Positions 1-60,072 of a DNA stretch of 64,000 nucleotides are shown here, piece by piece; within the stretch, counting starts at the first letter, position 1, and each line of letters opens with the position of its first letter. Source of the DNA: Camelus dromedarius. Lineage: Eukaryota. The notes under the pieces were generated by a model. That model had not been told where the DNA came from. It worked only from the letters and a program-made list of their open reading frames with translations, and ran no database searches. The position numbers and the translations under genes were made by a program. The stretch spans positions 21,206,001-21,270,000 of the forward strand of contig NC_087436.1 of assembly GCF_036321535.1 (NCBI RefSeq), read 5' to 3'.

Positions 1-2823
1 TCCACTCATCCATTAAAAGAACAATGTAAGAACTGTTGGTAAAAGTGTAATTTTCATCAATGATATTCAAATCTGTGCTTGGCAATATATACTACAATAA
101 AGTTATCTGTGATTAAAAAGGTGGGGGGAAAGGGGCTGGTATAGCACATGAATTAAGAGGCCAAATGACCCAAATTCAAGTCTAACTTCACTGCTAAGAC
201 CTTTAGGCACCTGTGGAACTTAAAGCTCATCACAAAAATCTCAGGTCTCCACAAGTAAAAAAACGACAAAGCCATCTACCTAGCCTACTTTACAAAATGG
301 TACTGGGATAGATACCATGAAAAATCAAATACATCTTTAAAAAGTAAGATGTGCTTTCCAACAGCAGTCATTATTTCTTTCATAGTTAAAAAAAAAAAAA
401 GGTTTGGATTTCAGGACTCTTGAAGTCCTATGATTACTGGTATATAGTGTACCTACCTATCAGTCTTGTCAATAGTGAGAGATGAGGATGAATGAAAGAC
501 AGGCCCCATCCACAATGTCAAAAAGATCACAGTAATAAACAAAAAATGAGATTGCTCCCCTGACCTATCAGCACCACAAGCAAAAAGGAAAAATTAACTT
601 CATACATAGAAAAGCTAGCTAATATTTCTAGGAAAATGGGCTTTGTCAGAAAATAAAAGATTTTGGAAAAATCCACCTTAAATTCTACTTTCAAACAAGA
701 AAAGGGCATTAAAATTTTTTTCAACCATGAAACAGACTGTCAGATATATTACATATGCGTGCTCAAATCTAGTTTTTAACCAGGGAACCTCAATGATTTC
801 TGAATTCAGTTAAAAGAGAACAGACTAAAGTAAGGTACGTTTCTTTGAAAAGAACAAAGTCACACTATAATGTGAAGAAAAAAACCAGAATCTAGTCAGT
901 GAAAAGATTGATAAAAAGTAAAAGTACCGATATTCCTCTACCGAGAAGGTAAAACTAACTCATTCGTCAATAAATGAAATTGTCAGACATCTTTTTTTAA
1001 GAATATGACAGGGCAAAATATGTGGGAAAAGGGTCAGCTTCAGAGCCAGACCTGGGTTCTATTACAGGTTCTGCTTACCAGAAGACTCAATTTCCTCATC
1101 TGGCAAAACAAAACAAAACAAAACACCACTAACTTCATTTGTTACTTGTTATAACCTGACTATTCATAATTAAACTTTAATTCCACTTCAACTTGAAAAT
1201 GGCACCTGAAAACCAAAATACTTAATTTAGACTTTAAATTATTCTGCTTTCTGGTATTTCTGTAACACCTCTAATGAAACTTTGGTTACTTCAAAATTTG
1301 AGTAACAGCCCCTTTTGAGAAGCTGAGGAAAACTACGGACAGAAATTTGCAGAGAATTGCGTATTAACATACAATTGCGTATTAACATACAATTGCTTTC
1401 AGCGTCAGATTTTCAAACCCACTTAAACCAGGAAGCAGGAATCCAAGTTAACCATAGTAATGGAAAGAACCATTTAAAACCTTAAGGAAAAGAAAATAGG
1501 CAAAAGTAGATGTGAATCGGAAACAAATCTCGTCACTGAAAACGACAGAATATCAGATGTCTTATTCTATCAAAACCTACCCTCTCCTGAAAGTTCTCAC
1601 AAAAACTAGTAACATGTTACTTCACCCTAAGTTAGACCGTTGGTACCCAAATAAAACTATTATACGCCGAATGCTTCAACGGGAAACTGCGCTACCATTT
1701 CCTTACTGTGTTAATTCTGCATCAACGTTCATTTTTAGAGCAGTACTACCTTCACTCAGTCTATCCAAGGATGGAAAAATCCCAGAAATCTTTGGACTTC
1801 GACTATAAAATATCTTAAAACAGATCGAAGGCCAAGAATAAAATCTGGAAGGAGCAAGCAATCACTTTGTTCCCAGACATCGCAAAGCCTTCCTTGGAGC
1901 GCACCCAAGAGACCCGCCTGGCAGTTCCCCAATCTTTCCACCCTCGCAGGACTGTCACCACCCCCTGGCCGGCTAACCCCAGCCCAGTAGGCAAGCAGGC
2001 TCGGCAGCGAGCGGTACCAATTTTCAAAATAAGGCCAAGGCCCTCAAAGAGGAATTGAGCTGGTCTGAAAACCAACCAACCGTCCCTGACTCACTAATTC
2101 ATTCATCCACCCATCCGTGGTCCCCCCCACCCCCCGCCCCCAATTAGATGGTGGTTCAAGACAGCTGCGGCTGCCTTGGTCGCTTCCCTCCCCGTGGAAC
2201 AGTGCCTGGGAGGAGCCTCCTCTCCCTTCACAGGAGCAGCTGCGCCCTGCTTATCCCCACGGCGCCCCGGGCCATCCAGCTCTCGGCATTGTTTCTGCCC
2301 AGAACAGATACCGCCCCCGCAAGGACCGGGATGAAGAAAAGGAGGCCCAAGTACTCGGATGCGCTGCTTTTAAATGCCTTCCCTACCCCGCCGGTCTACC
2401 CTCGTTCCTAGGGGGACATCTCCCTCGCCCTTCCCCCAAGTTGAGTGGAAACTAAAAGCCAGATTCAGAGATGGGCGAGAGAATGATGGGAGCCTAGCTA
2501 GGGAAAAAAGGGGGGGGGTACACGTCTCTCGGCCTAAGTAATCAAGAACGTATGTCTAATAAGAGCGTTCGAGGATCTGGCAAGGTTCGCTGAAGAGACA
2601 AACATGTAAGTGGGAAGTGCCAGAGATCCAACTGAATCCACCTGGATAGGTGAAGCACAAGGGCGCGGGGCTGAGAGCATCATTTCGGATCCCGAGGGTC
2701 TGAGGCCGAGCTTTGGTGCAGAGGGGTGAAGTTCGGCTCTGCGTCTGTTCACGACCATAGGGGCCAGGGAACCAGTTCCTCCTCCCCATCCCGCCCTCTC
2801 CCCACGCCACAAGCCGCCCTCAC

Positions 2824-3000
2824 CTCCATCTCGGAGTCCGCGGGGCCGGCGCCGGCCGCAGAGGGAGCCGCCTGGGCCGCGACGCCCTCGGCGCTGCCTT
2901 TGTTGCTGTTGCTGCTCCCGCTGCAGGCGGCCGAGGCAGCGGGCTTGGAAGGCGCGCTCTCAGGAGGCGGGGGTGGCGGAGGGTCGGCGGCGGACGACAT
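2824..3000 (-). CDS. SMARCA5: SMARCA5 (SNF2H, ISWI remodeller ATPase) coding exon 1; the rest of the gene lies left of the window
   Basis: Translates to [22 protein letters not shown]...GPADSEME (59 aa), matching the recalled SMARCA5 N-terminus. A phase-0 donor GAG|gtgagg follows at 2823. It lies next to GAB1, as in other mammals. Confidence 0.96.
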
Positions 3001-3456
3001 GATGTTCCGTCTGCGTCACCCGCTGCTGCCAGAGGCCGGGCCGGCAGGGGTGAGGAGGAAGCCTAGGCCTGGGTGGCTACGTCGCAATGAGCAGATGGAG
3101 GAGCGAGAGGACCACCCGAATGCCCCCTGCGCCGCCGCTCGGCGACGAGCCGGAGCCAGGCCCAGCAGCCTCCCCCTCTCGTCCTCGGCCCCCTCTTCCA
3201 CCGGGCTCCGGGTTCGACCAGCGCTTTACCTCACGGCGGGAATCACGTCGACGAGAGTGGGCGGGGCCACCCGGGTCACAGAGGTCAGGGAAGGCGGGCT
3301 GATTTACAGGAGGGCGGAGGGTTAGGGGGAAACGAAAGGAAAGCGAAGAAGGGGCCGAGTCCGGGAACTGGCTTCGCGGCCTCGCCTTCTTCCTCTGGCA
3401 GATACCATCTATCTCGCCCGCATCCAGGTCTACTACCTACGCCACCGACTTTCAAC

Positions 3457-3466
3457 ACTCGCGAGA
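3457..3466. promoter_or_regulatory. CGCG-element / BANP-type motif
   Basis: ACTCGCGAGA, a 9/10 match to TCTCGCGAGA, inside the CpG island. Confidence 0.5.
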
Positions 3467-3497
3467 TTGATAGTTGGCCAAATGACTGGGTACCAAG

Positions 3498-3509
3498 TGC
3501 GCATGCGCA
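3498..3509. promoter_or_regulatory. NRF1 palindromic site
   Basis: Perfect TGCGCATGCGCA, about 500 bp upstream of the SMARCA5 ATG. Confidence 0.75.
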
Positions 3510-3528
3510 TTCCCCTCTCACTGCCCTT

Positions 3529-3583
3529 GGCCACGCCCCCTCCGGGGTCCCCAGCGGGCTTTAGGGCGAGGAGTGGGCGGGGC
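3529..3583. promoter_or_regulatory. SP/KLF GC boxes
   Basis: GGCCACGCCCCC (3529-3540) and GGGCGGGGC (about 3575-3583). Confidence 0.6.
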
Positions 3584-5559
3584 CTCGAGGGAGAACTCTT
3601 AGACGTAGGCTTGTGCGTCGGCTCCCGGGCGTGATGCGAGAGCCGTGCTCCAGGCGTTCTTAACGGCTTGCAGTCCTCGACCGCCGCGTCTTATTGGCAT
3701 GGCAGCGATCGGCGGCGTTCCTTAGAAACTTGCCCGGGTTTTGCGCCGCCTACTGCAGCATGGAGGCCTGTGCAGGCCTTAACACTTTTACCGCCTCCGC
3801 TGATAGGCGTGACGCCACGGTGTTGACGTCTCCCTGTTTTGTTGTCTAAGGAAAAGTGCCCGTTAGTGTGATTTTTTTTTTTGTCAACATCGCATGTTAG
3901 TTACATCAATCATTTCTAAATGTTTTCTCTTCGGTTCAGAATTACATGATATTTCCTCTGAATTTACATGCTGAAAGTAAGCAAACAGTTCCCAACACCG
4001 TGTAAGTGAAACATGAGCAATTAATAGATAAGAAAGAGAGGCGATGTGTTATCTTTTCCTCAACCACCAAATAAATAAATTTAAAATTGTACATTATTCT
4101 TTTATCGGTAAGAAATGTTACAGGTAATCACTACTGGTTTGTACACTTCCTTACGCTCTCTTCAACACAGCCTGAGGGTCTCGTGCATCATCTACTACTG
4201 AGTTTAAGCACATTGTGTTCTATTCGATATCAAATCTGCCTACCGCAGTAAATTGCTATCTGCCCTGCACAGGCTTTTATTCATATTTGTATCCCCATGT
4301 CCAGCTTTCTATCAATATGTACTGAATAAAGGCGACACTTCGCAAGAGTTAAGGTTTGTGCAAACTCTGGATTTTGCTGAATTTCAAACAGAAGGGATCG
4401 CCTTTGAATACATAGCCCGCAGACTTTTAACCAATTGAGTAATAATTCTTTGAGAGCTGGAAAAATGACCCCTAGCCCATTAGAAATACTATTTCTGAGG
4501 CTACAAGGAACCGCCTATGGATACATGAAAAGTACCTAAAGGATGTTCATCATGTTCTTCACGTGTAATTACAAAAAACTAGCAACAGATTAAGAGTCCA
4601 ACATTGAAAATATGATTTTAAAACTATCGTACACCCAAAAAAAGAATTCATCGACCTTTAACAACCATTAATGTAGAATAATGTTTATTATATAGTGTTA
4701 ACTGAAAAAAATTTTTAACAGTTCAAAAATACAGATAAAACTTTGGAAAGATAGTCCTGAAAGTATTGAAAGTGATTGTTGTTGGTGTATATTTCTTAAT
4801 TCTTTTTTGTTTGTATTTTTTATTTTTCTAAAATGAACCTGGGTATTATCATATTGAGAAAACAATGTTAAAAAAATTATGTCCCCGAAAAAGCTTGTGT
4901 GGAAGGATAAAAGGTACTATCTAGGGTGGTTGCTGACATATAGACACTCAGTAAATACTTATTAATAAATATTTATTCAATATTGACATTGTTAAGTAGA
5001 AAAAATATAACATTTATGTAATATTCAGAACATTTCTTCACTCTATAATGATAGGTAAATAACTTTGGTTCTGGTTTGGAAACCCTAAAAATATACTGAA
5101 TATATAAATGGATGAATCTTAAGTCTGATAATAGTTTAAAGAAAACAATAAGTAGCAAGAAAAACAATAAATAAAATTGCCTCCAAAATGGCAACTGTCT
5201 TTTTTAACATATGCACTTACACTGTGAGTGAGTCTGTCTTATGAGCATATGAAAGCTGTATGAGAATCTTGTAGGGAAAATTTTAGAGGAAAGGAGGGAA
5301 AGGAAACAGAATGTCTGAATCCACTAATCTAACAACAGGGACAGAGAAACAGATTTTGAGCAAGATCTAGAAGCGGAGAGGAAGAGGACAGACAAGCTAC
5401 AGAAAAGACAGGAAGCCTGGAAACTGAGCTGTGGGGACATTAGCTGAGTTAGGCAGAGAGCAGTGCTTATATGATGGCCAAATGACAAAGGCCTATTCTT
5501 CAAATACAGGCTACAACGAACAGCTAGTTCTGGAATTGATGGCATAATATAGGATTAAT

Positions 5560-43971: not shown

Positions 43972-45666
43972 CTGCAATGAGAGAGAGAAAAAGAGATTTT
44001 AGTAGACAGACATTTGAAAACCAAAACAAGATCCTCTCTATTTCTAGTTACACATTAGAGCCACAGCACACCTAAGACCAGCTAGTTTCCCATGTGAAAA
44101 GAAGTTCACGGATGTTATATGGTTTTTCTAAGGTCACACAGCTAAAAAAATGAGTGGCAAAAGCTAAATCAGATAATGTTTCATGACTGCTGACTCAGTC
44201 TAAATAAAGCTTTTTATTACAGCTTGCTGCTTTTTAATTTAAGTAGCTATTTTATGGATATAAACTAAATGAGAATAAGAAAGAGTAATGTGACCCAGTT
44301 CCTTCAGTTATTTGATTTATACTATTCATTATTTCCTTATTTTATTTTTTCACTAATTTTATCCTCAAACACAGTGATTTAATTTTCTATGTAAATACGT
44401 TCCTAATCATTAACACAGAAGCATGAGTAATACAACAATACATATAAAATGATGTTTAGAAATAAACACAAAGCTTTGCTAAAACCAAAAACTGAGAAAA
44501 GAATTAATGACCAAATCTTAAATTAATTCATGTCTAGTCCAGAAACAAATAGAACAAAGCAAAAATTGTATCTCTCTACTCAAACTTAGCTCTGAGAAAA
44601 GGCCTTAATCAAATAATTACCTCAAATTTTTAGCTTAATTTAACCAATAATATAATTTAATAAATTGAATATTCTTACTAGCATTTATTTATAAGTGGTC
44701 TTTGCTCACCTAATGCATTACAGCAATAGACAATTACTCTTCTAGTGTATACCAAGAGCTCTTGGCCCTTAAAGTCAACATTCAAACGGTTTTTAGAAAT
44801 TAATGAAATGGGCAAAAGAACTAAAACAATATTGTTTGTTAATATTCACTATATTTTAGGAGACTATTTAAATATATTAGGTGAATATTTTAGTTACATT
44901 TCATCGACACTCTAAAGAAAAAATTTTCATTTTTCCAGGTATCCTTCTAGCCTTTGTCCATATATGTGTACTTTTAATCAACTATGTTATAATTACCTTC
45001 AAACTATAAAATACGTAGCCATTTTCAAGGACTATGTAGAATCCTTGGGGCTTATGACTAAGTATTTCTCTCAACTCAAATACAAAAAAAACTCAATGTG
45101 ATTTTCTGAAGACCACACTGATTTAAGTTCGACTTAAAATAATTTTGCCCATCTATCCACTTAAAATGGACATGTACAGAGTATTGAGCTAACCGAAAGT
45201 ATTTCTTGAACTCTTATGTTTTTACTTTTTTGAAACCCAAAGGCTAATAGCAATTCAGCTGCCAAATTCTAAGTAATGGCATAAAGTAATTAATCCACTG
45301 AAATGATTTTATATTCTGTCCCAGAACAGAGTACATGCATTATCTATAAATACAGGAGACAACTGGAACTCACAAGCAGCTCACAAGTTTAAAGAAAACA
45401 CTGTATTGATGTCTAAAAGGTTAAAGGAATAATACAAAAGGACAAGACTGAATATCATATATTATCAAATATTTAACATGCTGCTGTTAATGGCATGACA
45501 AGACTTATTGTGTATTATGGAAAGCATTCACTTTAGAAATTACGTGCTGGGAAGCTTATTTACAACAGCAATGGTACGTAAGACTTGTCTCCTTTACTTT
45601 AAAAAAAAATCACAGAATAAATAAATTCCCAACACCCCATCCAGCATGCGGTGCTAAAGTACATAC

Positions 45667-45756
45667 CCTTTCTTCTTGTAGCAAAGTCACCTATGGTTTG
45701 TGAATCAGTTCGCTCTAAACCATGGGGTTTGGGTCTTAAAATTTTAGGACTTTGAC
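45667..45756 (-). CDS. GAB1: GAB1 exon 7, the 90-nt cassette exon of the long isoform
   Basis: tag|GT...AAGG|gtatgt, symmetric phase 1, encoding (G)QSPKILRPKPHGLERTDSQTIGDFATRRK. Confidence 0.92.
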
Positions 45757-46440
45757 CTAATTGGTAAAAAGAAGACTCTCTTAATATAGTGTTATTTTTT
45801 AATGGGGAAAAAAATGGATTCTGTAAAAAAAAAGCAACAGAGCCCTGAGCAGAAATGTTAGATCTCAAAAGCATAAACAGAAGTTTGTTTGTGGAGACAA
45901 TTTCAGTCTTGTTACACATATCATTCATGCTCAGTACCAAGGGAACCAGGAAGCTGCATGCAACCATGTAATAAGCAAAGTATTATAAAAGATGGTAGGG
46001 TTTTAGTGGCATAATTGCCTGGTTAGTTGTTATCTGTATTTGGAGGAAGGGAGGAAAAACGTGTCATGTTAGTTATTCTTCTAACATGCCATAGAAAATT
46101 GGATCAAATAAAAAATTATGAAACCCCTGGGTCAGATCTCAAGGACATCTTTTCTTTGAAGTTTGGCATCTCATAAGAAAGTACCAAGGTCTGCTTCCTT
46201 AACTTGACAGAAGTGTTTTAAAAACTTCAGTCTGACTACTCCTTCACCTCTAGGCCAAAGCCCTTCCAGAGAAACTATTCGACCACGTCTCCTAATCCAA
46301 GGTCAAAACCAAGACCAGCATTTGTTTCCCCTGGATACTCAGTGGTTGCCCAGTGACACCATTTTGCAAGGATTAGATGTCTGGATTCTGGAACTGCTGA
46401 TTATCCAGCTTTAAGTATCTGAAAGCATAAATTCAGCTGC

Positions 46441-54015: not shown

Positions 54016-55233
54016 CTAAAACAGAGAATAAACTGTCAACATTTCCTCCCAACTTTACCAGTTCTCAAGGTAATCAGGAATAACATTCTCTCTCTCTGTC
54101 TTTTCATATATGCACACATGCACATACACAGATTTTTAAAAGGATGCTCACAGAATAATATCTCTCATTAACACATTGAAGCACTAGAAAATGCAGACAT
54201 TTCCTCTTATGCTAACCAGTACCAGTATTTGATTATGACAATGAGTAAATAGCTAAGCCTGGGATGAAATGGTTATCTAAAGATGGAGAAAAGAAATACT
54301 TCCGTTTTTTCATCTTTTGCACCCTTGGGTCTAATTTGCATCTCACTAACTTATAACCACTATAACATACATTACAGCCACTTCAAGAAATTAGAAACTG
54401 GTAATGAATAGCTAAATAAGTGTTGATATAAGTCCTATTCACAACACATTAAATCTTTACCTTCTTTAAAACAGCCGGATAACTCGAACACAAAATACAG
54501 AAGTTTTTAGGGTATGTGCATTGTAAACTTTGGCTTTTTAGTTTTAGGACTTTAAGAACCTCAGAGTATAACCCAAACTCAATTTTTCTCCTCTCAAGGT
54601 CTGCAACTTTTGGTTGGCTCTAGGAGATGGTGAAGGCTCTAGGAATAAGTAAAGTGGCTAGGGGTCTGGGAAGAGAAGATTCAGAGCTTTAAATATAAAT
54701 AAAACCAAACAAACAAAAAGCAGAATGACTTGATTGGAGTGGCATATCAGCTGGTAGATGTAACGTAAAAACTGCTAATCTAGAAGGAAGGAAACGGAGC
54801 CCAGCAGATGTGACAGAGAAGTGGTCATAACGGGACACAAATACAGGGAAGGGTATGCCTGGGAGAGGCCTTGTGGCTGGTCTACTTCCTGCTCCTCTGT
54901 CCCATCGGGTCTGCCCACCCAGGAGAGAGAAAGTGAGAGAGGGGGGTGCACACTTCCTGAGGCAGGAAGGTATTCCTAAGGCCACACTTTTTCAGGGATG
55001 AATAAATCCATCCCCTTCTCCCTTCCAGCAGAACACGCACACGGACACACGCTGCATGCACAACCACACTTCTGTGGGACTCTGACATCTTTGCTAAGTG
55101 AATGGGCAACTGCAGAACTGCAGAGAAAAGGGATTATCATTTCACGTCACGCTATGCTTACAAGAACAAATATTTGGACCAACGGCTGCTCGATCGTTAA
55201 CCTCTAACACGGCAGAAGCCAACTGGAGCTGAC

Positions 55234-55835
55234 CTTTTCGCAATTTGTTCAAATCCACAGTGGAAATGGTATTACTACGTGACGGTGGCATCCCTGCCGT
55301 AGGGACACAGTAACTACCGTCAGTGTCCGAGGCTGCGCGTGTGATGCTACACGCTTCCACGGGAGAGCGGTCATGAGCCGGGTGTGGTTTCGGTGGCCGA
55401 GGTGGAGGAATATCTGGAATAGTGTCCAGCTTTGACGTCTGCCCCAAGGTTCCTTCGGGAAATGTTCGTGGGATCTGATAAGTATTACCAGGTGTTGGAG
55501 GAATGTCATAACTTATAGATACGTGCCTCAGCTGGGTCTCTACATTGGAGGTCCCCGAGGGGGTATTAAAAACATAGAGTTCTCCATCGGCTTCGGTACT
55601 TGATGGAGACACCTTTGGTAAAACGTCGTGGGAGTAACTCCTGGGCAGGTAATAAAGGCTGGAGTCGACAGAAACAGATGCAGCGCGAGACGGTGGCGAG
55701 TCATACATCATCTGCTGCTGAAAAAAGCCATTCACTCCGTGTTTGCTCTGGGAGGAAGCAGGGTTTTTATGAGAAGGGACGTTATCATTGCAGTCTGTCT
55801 CAGAAGAGGTGGATTTGGCAGAATCAGTGTGTGTT
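55234..55835 (-). CDS. GAB1: GAB1 exon 4 (YxxP Crk-site cluster, PPPRPPKP)
   Basis: tag|A ACA CAC...AAA G|gtcagc, 602 nt, open frame. Confidence 0.97.
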
Positions 55836-58275: not shown

Positions 58276-59393
58276 TTAACTGTCGCTTCCGCAAAACATA
58301 GATACAAAATATATCTGAGCAATGATCCACATCATAATTTCTACTACAGCAGGAAAACTGTGATACCAATGAGATCCACGAAAGACACTATATAAAAAGA
58401 AAACGTACTGAAAACTGTTACTTGGCTGTTGGCTTTTGAAAAATTGATATGGAAAAATAACTGTGGCTCTCCCTAAAATAAAATCTTAGTTAGTAGCATA
58501 GGCAACAAAGTTGCAAGTGTATAATTTTACATACTCACAGCAAACAAGCAAAAATCAAGTTAGAATTTGATATTATTAACTGGTGTTGATTTATAAAAAA
58601 AAAATTTTTTTTTTTTGCTCTTACACGTAAAATCCCATTACAACAAATATATGGAAACTCATCTTTGAAAGGTTTGTTAGCTGTTTCCATTATCTCAGGG
58701 AATGGTTTACAGGAACTAATTTGTGGATCTTAACCAATTCTACTTAAAAATTTTTGAACAAGTGTTTTGTATGACCCAGAGCCTAGTAACAGTCACTTTC
58801 TACATGAAAAAATTTTTTTTTGTTATAAAAATAATGCCTCCATCTAACACCTGTTTTAAAAAAATCTTTCACCTCTCAATGCAATTCACCTCTGCCCTTC
58901 ATACTGCAAATTCAGATAATAAATACACCCATGTCACTAGTTATCACATAGCTGCTAATGGTAAAACAGATCTTCTAGTTAATTTCTGACTCCAACTGTC
59001 ACTATTACTTTAAGCCTTCCAATTATCCAACATCAAATGACAAGAATGATCAGATTAAAATATCTTATAGCTTGAAAGAAGAGAGGGGTATGGAAGCAAA
59101 GACGGCGATGACAGGTAAATCAGGCTCTGGGAAAGGTTTCAGGATAGCCTTGGTAATCACGGAAATCCATATACTCCATTCTACTTAAAAATCTGTCAAG
59201 TCAAGTCTTGTGGTAAGGTCTGCTTCATTGCTAGGTATGAAGATTCAAAAGTTTCGTAGTTTTTAGCAACATATTTGACTTCATCAAATTTCACTGATGC
59301 CCGATTGGTTTATTCCATAGAATTTGCTATACTGGGATTTTACCTGCATGATTAATTTCTCACACAGATCCAAAGCAACCACAACACACTCAC

Positions 59394-59474
59394 TGCAATG
59401 GAATCGTTTTGCTTTCAAAATCTTCTAGCAGTAGATATTCCTCTCCTTCTTCAGAAACAAAAGATGACCCTTGG
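59394..59474 (-). CDS. GAB1: GAB1 81-nt in-frame cassette exon between exons 3 and 4
   Basis: ccag|C CAA GGG...TTG CA|gtgagt. Exactly 27 codons, phase 2 at both ends like the host intron, no stop, encoding (S)QGSSFVSEEGEEYLLLEDFESKTIPL(Q). Confidence 0.85.
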
Positions 59475-59849
59475 CTGGTTTACAATCACATAAGAAATGG
59501 AGCAAGATCACCATTTATAAATCAGTGAAATCTGTTAAGCAAGTAATACTGTGAGTCTGTAACAACGACTATGACACAGGAGACACATTTCTAAAAGAGC
59601 CTTGTAGGTACAAGTGTTCTCTGCCAGAAATTATAGAGAACGTGTTTCTTTAATAAAATCTCCTGAACATCAGACATCATTAGTCGGGGAACATACACCT
59701 GAAATATACGCCTAAAATATAAGCTTCTATAGGTGGTTTCTTTTAAGCCTTCAAATGAGGGTTAAAAAAGTTTAAAGGTGAGCTTCCTAAAGACATGCGC
59801 GCACAGACGCACAGACGCGCGCGCACTTGCGCAGACGGATGCGGTTTAC

Positions 59850-60072
59850 CTGGGGGGTTCAGGCTTCTTGCTTTGACAGTTGATGAGCAAGAGGTAGTCT
59901 TGAGGGTCCTCCTGGATGCCAAGAGTTTCCAGGTGTGGCGGAAGGCTAATTAGCTGATACGGCGGAGGAGGAGCAGCGGAGGAATCCACCTGGGCGGAGG
60001 GCGGTGCTGTGTTTATCGCTAACGGTAAATCAGCTGGTGCTTGTAAGGAGTTGCCAGGAGGCTTCACAGGAT
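59850..60072 (-). CDS. GAB1: GAB1 exon 3; the PH-domain exons 1-2 lie right of the window
   Basis: cag|AT CCT GTG...CCC AG|gtaaac. 223 nt encoding (D)[21 protein letters not shown]...[16 protein letters not shown](R). Confidence 0.96.

Follow-up and report, generated by a model that had tools for sequence, protein, structure and literature searches.

The closest described counterpart of the segment analysed here is an extra exon of Gab1. Yasui 2016 reported an 81-bp exon, coding for 27 additional residues and lying between exons 3 and 4, in the 'high-MW Gab1' of mouse, rat and human (PMC5115770). According to that report, the mouse isoform with the extra exon occurs in heart and in embryonic skeletal muscle; in adult skeletal muscle its mRNA is barely detectable and its protein went undetected. 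The same report describes neuregulin/ErbB signalling via Gab1 as important for heart maintenance, finds the long isoform tyrosine-phosphorylated upon neuregulin-1 and AKT activation reduced upon its knockdown. The short isoform boosts AKT about equally and the authors leave a shared role possible, so that no function specific to the insert emerges from these experiments (PMC5115770). Conservation is given there for mammals only, and no homology of the insert to known domains is reported.

A second described system is the motif around Tyr183 of Gab1 (Dietrich et al. 2026, PMC13435814). Tyr183 is presented there as conserved and phosphorylated, without a known partner, and as part of a preformed helix (P180-I187) that is about 40% populated by NMR. 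The study also points out that the docking tyrosines of Gab1 occur as pairs, that Tyr627 and Tyr659, 32 residues apart, bind the tandem SH2 domains of SHP2, and that the likeness of Tyr162 to Tyr183 is merely superficial (PMC13435814). By its legend the alignment of that study covers vertebrates only, and its main text makes no mention of isoforms or exons. In the literature that we covered, which included few subscription papers and no supplements, we found no report of a duplication of the Tyr183 motif or of a pre-mammalian age of the exon. One further paper (PMC4670726) was set aside as dealing with a different Gab1 motif.

The window analysed here is a stretch of 64,000 nucleotides of the Camelus dromedarius contig NC_087436.1, and GAB1 lies on its reverse strand. 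We find in intron 3 of this gene the camel orthologue of the heart/striated-muscle cassette exon, an identity of which we are almost certain. The features discussed below are collected in Table 1.

Table 1. Features of the camel GAB1 cassette exon and its surroundings, in window positions
Feature	Position	Strand	Basis
GAB1 cassette exon, 81 nt, phase 2/2, net +27 aa	59394..59474	-	splice sites, frame, tblastn, Yasui 2016
GAB1 exon 3, 223 nt, upstream neighbour, ends in phase 2	59850..60072	-	
GAB1 exon 4, 602 nt, downstream neighbour	55234..55835	-	
Acceptor region, 57 nt without a further AG, pyrimidine tract distant from the AG	59475..59531	-	
Second Tyr183-like motif, E-Y-L-L-L-E-D-F-E-S; Tyr210 codon 59437-59435	59411..59440	-	alignment, profile
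First motif, camel Pro179-Lys192; Tyr182 = human Tyr183; putative duplication template	59864..59905	-	
Donor gtgagt and UG/GU-rich flank, candidate intronic splicing enhancer	59354..59393	-	TG count
Lone ACTAAT (QKI-type) element, 210 nt before the acceptor, possibly a chance match	59679..59684	-	

A sequence-only reading of the window had proposed at this place an AG/GT-bounded segment of 81 nt, open in the frame of the flanking exons, and its coordinates, sites, phase and frame are all as claimed. The acceptor reads ...gattgtaaaccag/C at 59475/59474 and the donor CA/gtgagt at 59394/59393. Exon 3 ends at 59850 with the donor AG/gtaaac and exon 4 starts at 55835, boundaries by which the two junctions proposed in that reading, 59850>59474 and 59394>55835, are correct. 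Intron 3 measures 4,014 nt. The cassette frame is open for 29 codons and each flanking intron supplies a stop. In the camel model P0014 the cassette corresponds to residues 197-224, with its first and last codons split; when it is included, a 28-residue S...Q string takes the place of one Arg. The acceptor had been called weak; by a simple count it has 12 pyrimidines in 20 positions, inside the range of 8-18 at eight other GAB1 acceptors, and the description is not borne out.

We also searched intron 3 for segments of 30-300 nt that are bounded by YAG and GTRAG, have a length that is a multiple of 3 and are free of stops in the frame of the cassette. Nine segments were found, the cassette included. 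Such formal sequence properties are not selective; it is conservation and the literature that single out the cassette among the nine.

Apart from the first residue (the published peptide starts with C), the human antigen peptide of Yasui 2016 is identical to the camel peptide, at 27 of 27 residues, and the mouse primer of that study equals the first 21 nt of the camel exon (PMC5115770). The proposed orthology is thus borne out by size (81 bp, 27 aa), location between exons 3 and 4 and peptide. The accompanying label 'striated-muscle' is correct as far as orthology goes and too broad for the adult mouse, in which the isoform is described as essentially cardiac, with its mRNA barely detected in skeletal muscle (PMC5115770). 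Any tissue specificity of the camel exon would be read across from these mouse data. Three sampled words of the 81-nt exon were present in 19 of 24 rows, none of them recorded as RNA, a result that is uninformative on expression.

At the level of annotation, the cassette is alternatively included and skipped in mammals. A protein search with exon 4 gave 1,121 matches, among which Camelus GAB1 was 100% identical; of the best 120 of these matches, all GAB1 proteins, 74 contain the cassette, 44 are without it and in 2 the end of exon 3 is missing. By tblastn the cassette matches Camelus models in 28 of 28 residues. It is carried by 11 of the 13 Camelus models listed, the remaining two being truncated models, and no skip isoform is found among these 13 proteins. 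The human UniProt entry D6RIS0 (721 aa) carries it as well. The reference form of GAB1, which we take to be the one of 694 aa, skips it. The suggestion that the exon would be missing from annotation is therefore not supported. Conservation across mammals, which had been expected, was found: 54 of 71 parsed inclusions are identical to camel and the other 17 differ in 1 of 28 residues.

Two other alternative pieces of GAB1 were seen in the window. An in-frame extension of exon 4 by 72 nt (55162-55233, minus strand; +24 residues), ending at a second donor GTAAG at 55161, is carried by 10 Camelus models only among all proteins fetched, and may be camel-specific or an artefact of gene models. A further alternative exon of about 30 residues (45665-45757, minus strand) is present in some Camelus models and absent from others; 21 of the best 120 of 1,121 proteins match a 12-residue piece of it exactly, and the exon probably accounts for the 724/751-aa forms. 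At the other end of the window, a CpG island at about 2000-4000 (GC 0.61, CpG observed/expected up to 0.99) contains an ATG-initiated Pro/Ala-rich first exon with an ORF start at 3000 on the minus strand, presumably SMARCA5, which we take to be the usual neighbour of GAB1.

Next, we compared the cassette peptide with the rest of the protein. Its best local match in camel GAB1 is the Tyr182 motif, with a score of 38 that is equalled by 61 of 10,000 shuffles when compared with the rest of GAB1 and by 2 of 10,000 when compared with exon 3 alone. The two exons adjoin, and their donors, both in phase 2, lie 44 nt (cassette) and 47 nt (exon 3) from the Tyr codon, within one codon of the equivalent position. 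At the DNA level cassette and exon 3 do not resemble each other significantly: 36 of 81 nt are alike in register, and the score is attained by 121 of 2,000 shuffles; decay would be expected at the age proposed for the duplication.

For a comparison with the motif family, a profile was made from 47 motifs of single-copy Gab-family representatives (of 150), with 6 two-copy or mammalian rows left out. On this profile, whose training rows were chosen by motif pattern and which therefore favours the motif, the cassette scores 7.5 bits with the Tyr uncounted and comes second among the 22 Tyr windows of the camel protein, the third being at -13.9. Among 1,494 other Tyr windows 7 score as high, and each of the 7 is a copy of the Tyr183 motif; of 20,000 shuffles, 1 does. 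In fish, second copies read Y-L-L-L-E-E-C-E-S and first copies Y-L-W-L-x-N-C-E-S. From these comparisons we infer that the cassette probably goes back to a tandem duplication in which the 3′-terminal part of exon 3 was copied together with its phase-2 donor.

The second copy is found far outside mammals. Because the sturgeon region, which served as query in a word-limited search, itself carries the cassette, inclusion forms are favoured among the 84 proteins returned, of which 78 have the second copy: sharks, rays, chimaera, sturgeon, paddlefish, bichir, gar, bowfin, teleosts, coelacanth, turtles, chicken and a marsupial. Amphibians, squamates and monotremes did not appear among the 84 proteins of this word-limited search, which is not evidence of loss. 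The spacing between the two tyrosines, over 80 proteins, is 28 residues in 66, 29 in 13 and 34 in one. E209-E214 and S218 are invariant over 34 jawed-vertebrate rows and the first half of the exon drifts. At position +6 the 17 distinct variants of the second copy have Cys in 7 cases (bichir, gar, bowfin, teleosts) and Phe in 10 (sharks, sturgeons, coelacanth and tetrapods including mammals), so that the Cys of the family may have been either kept or regained in some second copies. Alternative use is annotated in fish as well: among 15 cyprinid proteins listed, 11 include and 4 skip the cassette, with the same S...Q versus R junction as in mammals. In a divergent teleost Gab1-like paralogue (P0124, P0125 and P0149, from salmon, pufferfish and mosquitofish) a single Tyr183-type motif was seen in the 5 models inspected; the cassette may have disappeared from this paralogue following gene duplication.

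In jawless fish, one lamprey Gab1-like gene has 8 models that include and 2 that skip, among 10 listed, a 28-residue difference bearing the second motif, and in two hagfish genes every model (7 of 7 and 2 of 2) carries the second motif. A third lamprey Gab gene also has isoforms that differ by 28 aa, but at residue 315, another site, and it was discarded as a further case. On the single-copy profile the jawless second copies score poorly (lamprey -17.7, one hagfish -14.4, the other outside its top 4). On a profile of jawed-vertebrate cassettes they rank first or second in their own proteins, a preference also seen for the lamprey first copy. Jawed and jawless second copies likely share ancestry; an independent duplication in lamprey is possible. 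One motif copy only is present in the annotated proteins of amphioxus (5 of 5) and tunicates (3 of 3), in lungfish Gab2 (1 of 1) and in shark Gab3 (8 of 8). These distributions suggest that the duplication predates the split of sharks and bony fish and, with less assurance, probably also that of jawed and jawless vertebrates. The Tyr183 motif itself reaches far beyond vertebrates, in the form Y-I-P-I-S-E-C of invertebrate-type Gab/Dos proteins (P0225-P0269).

What the exon would do in the protein can be outlined from its place. Inclusion would keep the frame and lengthen the disordered tail by 27 residues at a point about 80 residues past the PH domain; the tail would thereby gain another Tyr183-type motif, more acidic than the first and 28-29 residues beyond it. 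By analogy, this spacing is close to the 32 residues between Tyr627 and Tyr659, which serve the tandem SH2 domains of SHP2. The cassette is strongly acidic, with 7 D/E and 1 K. Acidic surroundings may favour tyrosine kinases, and the acidity may lie behind a band shift of about 20 kDa for an insert of about 3 kDa. Muscle Gab1 could in this way gain a paired docking site for the partner of Tyr183, with the cassette rather than Tyr162 as the genuine second tyrosine of the pair and in muscle alone, or a better kinase site, and a paired site would tune, rather than create, neuregulin/ErbB4-to-AKT signalling; we propose this tentatively, as a possibility falling somewhat short of probable. The more specific proposal, that the duplicate of the Tyr183 motif has been switched on and off as a cassette since before the split of jawed and jawless vertebrates and that in cardiomyocytes the tandem pair binds one partner bivalently, is more doubtful still.

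Structure prediction counts against a paired site. In an AlphaFold model from an alignment of 77 rows, residues 195-243 have a pLDDT below 50 and no helix; the first motif, at pLDDT 50-70, is given one turn only despite its helix proven by NMR. A predicted complex of the PH domain (1-125) with residues 168-228 received a score of 0.01 and a mark of 0.34; controls were not folded and this prediction gives no answer.

The likeness to exon 3 could instead be convergence or chance among short acidic Tyr-x-x-Leu motifs, the exon having arisen from the intron and serving an unrelated partner of its own, of a type exemplified by the consensus patterns of Tyr-based sorting motifs and LC3-interacting motifs. 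The match is indeed short and its counterpart in DNA not significant; a Pfam scan of the 29-aa peptide gave 0 families, a PDB sequence search with the exon 3 and cassette peptides gave 0 matches at E up to 10, and Yasui 2016 found no homology to known domains (PMC5115770). Nevertheless, chance would have to explain why the cassette comes second of 22 on a profile from which it was held out, why first and second copies of fish are alike and why two adjacent exons of the same phase have donors within one codon, and we consider it improbable. A related doubt is whether the segment is used at all in camel, or is a silent or poorly used pseudo-exon retained by descent. Eight further segments of intron 3 have the same formal properties. 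The camel peptide, however, is the commonest mammalian form (54 of 71), the exon retains intact splice sites and 11 of the 13 Camelus models contain it, which makes a pseudo-exon extremely improbable.

Even if the exon is used and derived from exon 3, it could act as a spacer or blocker that interrupts the PAK4-binding region, or as a decoy that competes with the Tyr183 motif. Insertion at about residue 196 does fall inside the PAK4-binding stretch of aa 116-234 (PMC2747914), and the mammalian second copy, which lacks the Cys, is much more acidic and has no predicted helix, would fit a blocker or decoy. A pure spacer, by contrast, would not hold E-Y-L-L-L-E invariant over 34 jawed-vertebrate rows with drifting flanks, an argument that does not touch the decoy. 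We see a spacer, blocker or decoy, the main competing explanation, as unlikely, although not negligible.

Finally, we investigated how inclusion of the cassette might be controlled. The first 40 intron bases after its donor contain 10 TG, a level not matched in any of 657 tiles, each forty bases long, of the GAB1 sense strand, and GTGTG occurs at +5 and +29, two copies being present in 2 of the 657 tiles; these tiles include the short exon 5 and the motif was picked after viewing. The UG-rich flank noted in the sequence-only reading is thus real. CELF factors prefer GU-rich RNA. The same preference is described for RBM24 (PMC7463526). The proximal downstream intron contains the GU/UG-rich element expected of muscle exons activated by RBM24/38 or CELF, and its position directly 3′ of the donor suits these factors as candidate activators. 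In our literature coverage (few subscription papers, no supplements) we found no report that ties Gab1 splicing to RBM24, CELF or another regulator. By default the cassette would be skipped and, in cardiomyocytes, a GU-binding activator of the RBM24/38 or CELF type near the donor would promote inclusion, a scheme that we rate about evenly for and against.

Other regulators were considered and rejected. For RBFOX, TGCATG is absent from the upstream intron and from the first 300 nt downstream. For QKI there is a single upstream element only, on the side associated with repression, and the main text of the QKI study that supplied the ACTAAT motif does not name Gab1. SRSF1 is mentioned in a review for exclusion of a GAB1 exon in breast cancer, with the exon not specified there (PMC10835012). 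Directly after the exon 3 donor (about 59800-59845, minus strand) we also observed a CG/TG-alternating stretch with several YGCY and one GCATG, perhaps the remnant of a microsatellite, or an element that acts in splicing.

Overall, the data are best explained jointly by identity with the muscle exon, origin from exon 3 by duplication, GU-activated splicing and a second Tyr183-type site, a reading in which our overall confidence is good, and lower for its splicing and functional parts. The exon was already published in 2016 and is annotated, and the camel copy adds little. The useful part is the joining of a heart-specific insert without recognisable domain (PMC5115770) to a conserved, phosphorylated Tyr183 helix without a known partner (PMC13435814). 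If the insert has been a second Tyr183 motif since early vertebrates, the role of the insert and the partner of Tyr183 become one question. If the tandem pair works as proposed, it would account for the existence of the isoform and offer a direct way to that partner.

Compared with the exon of Yasui 2016, the camel segment shares the 81 nt between exons 3 and 4, the 27 added residues, the antigen peptide and the primer; it differs in coming from a camelid, in being traced to sharks and probably to jawless fish, and in being matched to the Tyr183 motif (PMC5115770). The RefSeq and UniProt isoforms of GAB1 (Camelus X1-X8, D6RIS0) contain the exon letter for letter, whereas they give it no tissue or function label and the common 694-aa forms are without it. 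With the Tyr183 motif of Gab1 the cassette shares the pattern acidic-Y-L-x-L-x-x-(C/F)-x-S-K, the location in the disordered tail after the PH domain and strong conservation (PMC13435814). It differs from that motif in Glu/Asp at +4/+5, in the mammalian Phe for Cys at +6, in having no Pro before the Tyr and, as far as the model goes, in the absence of a predicted helix where the Tyr183 motif has one by NMR (PMC13435814).
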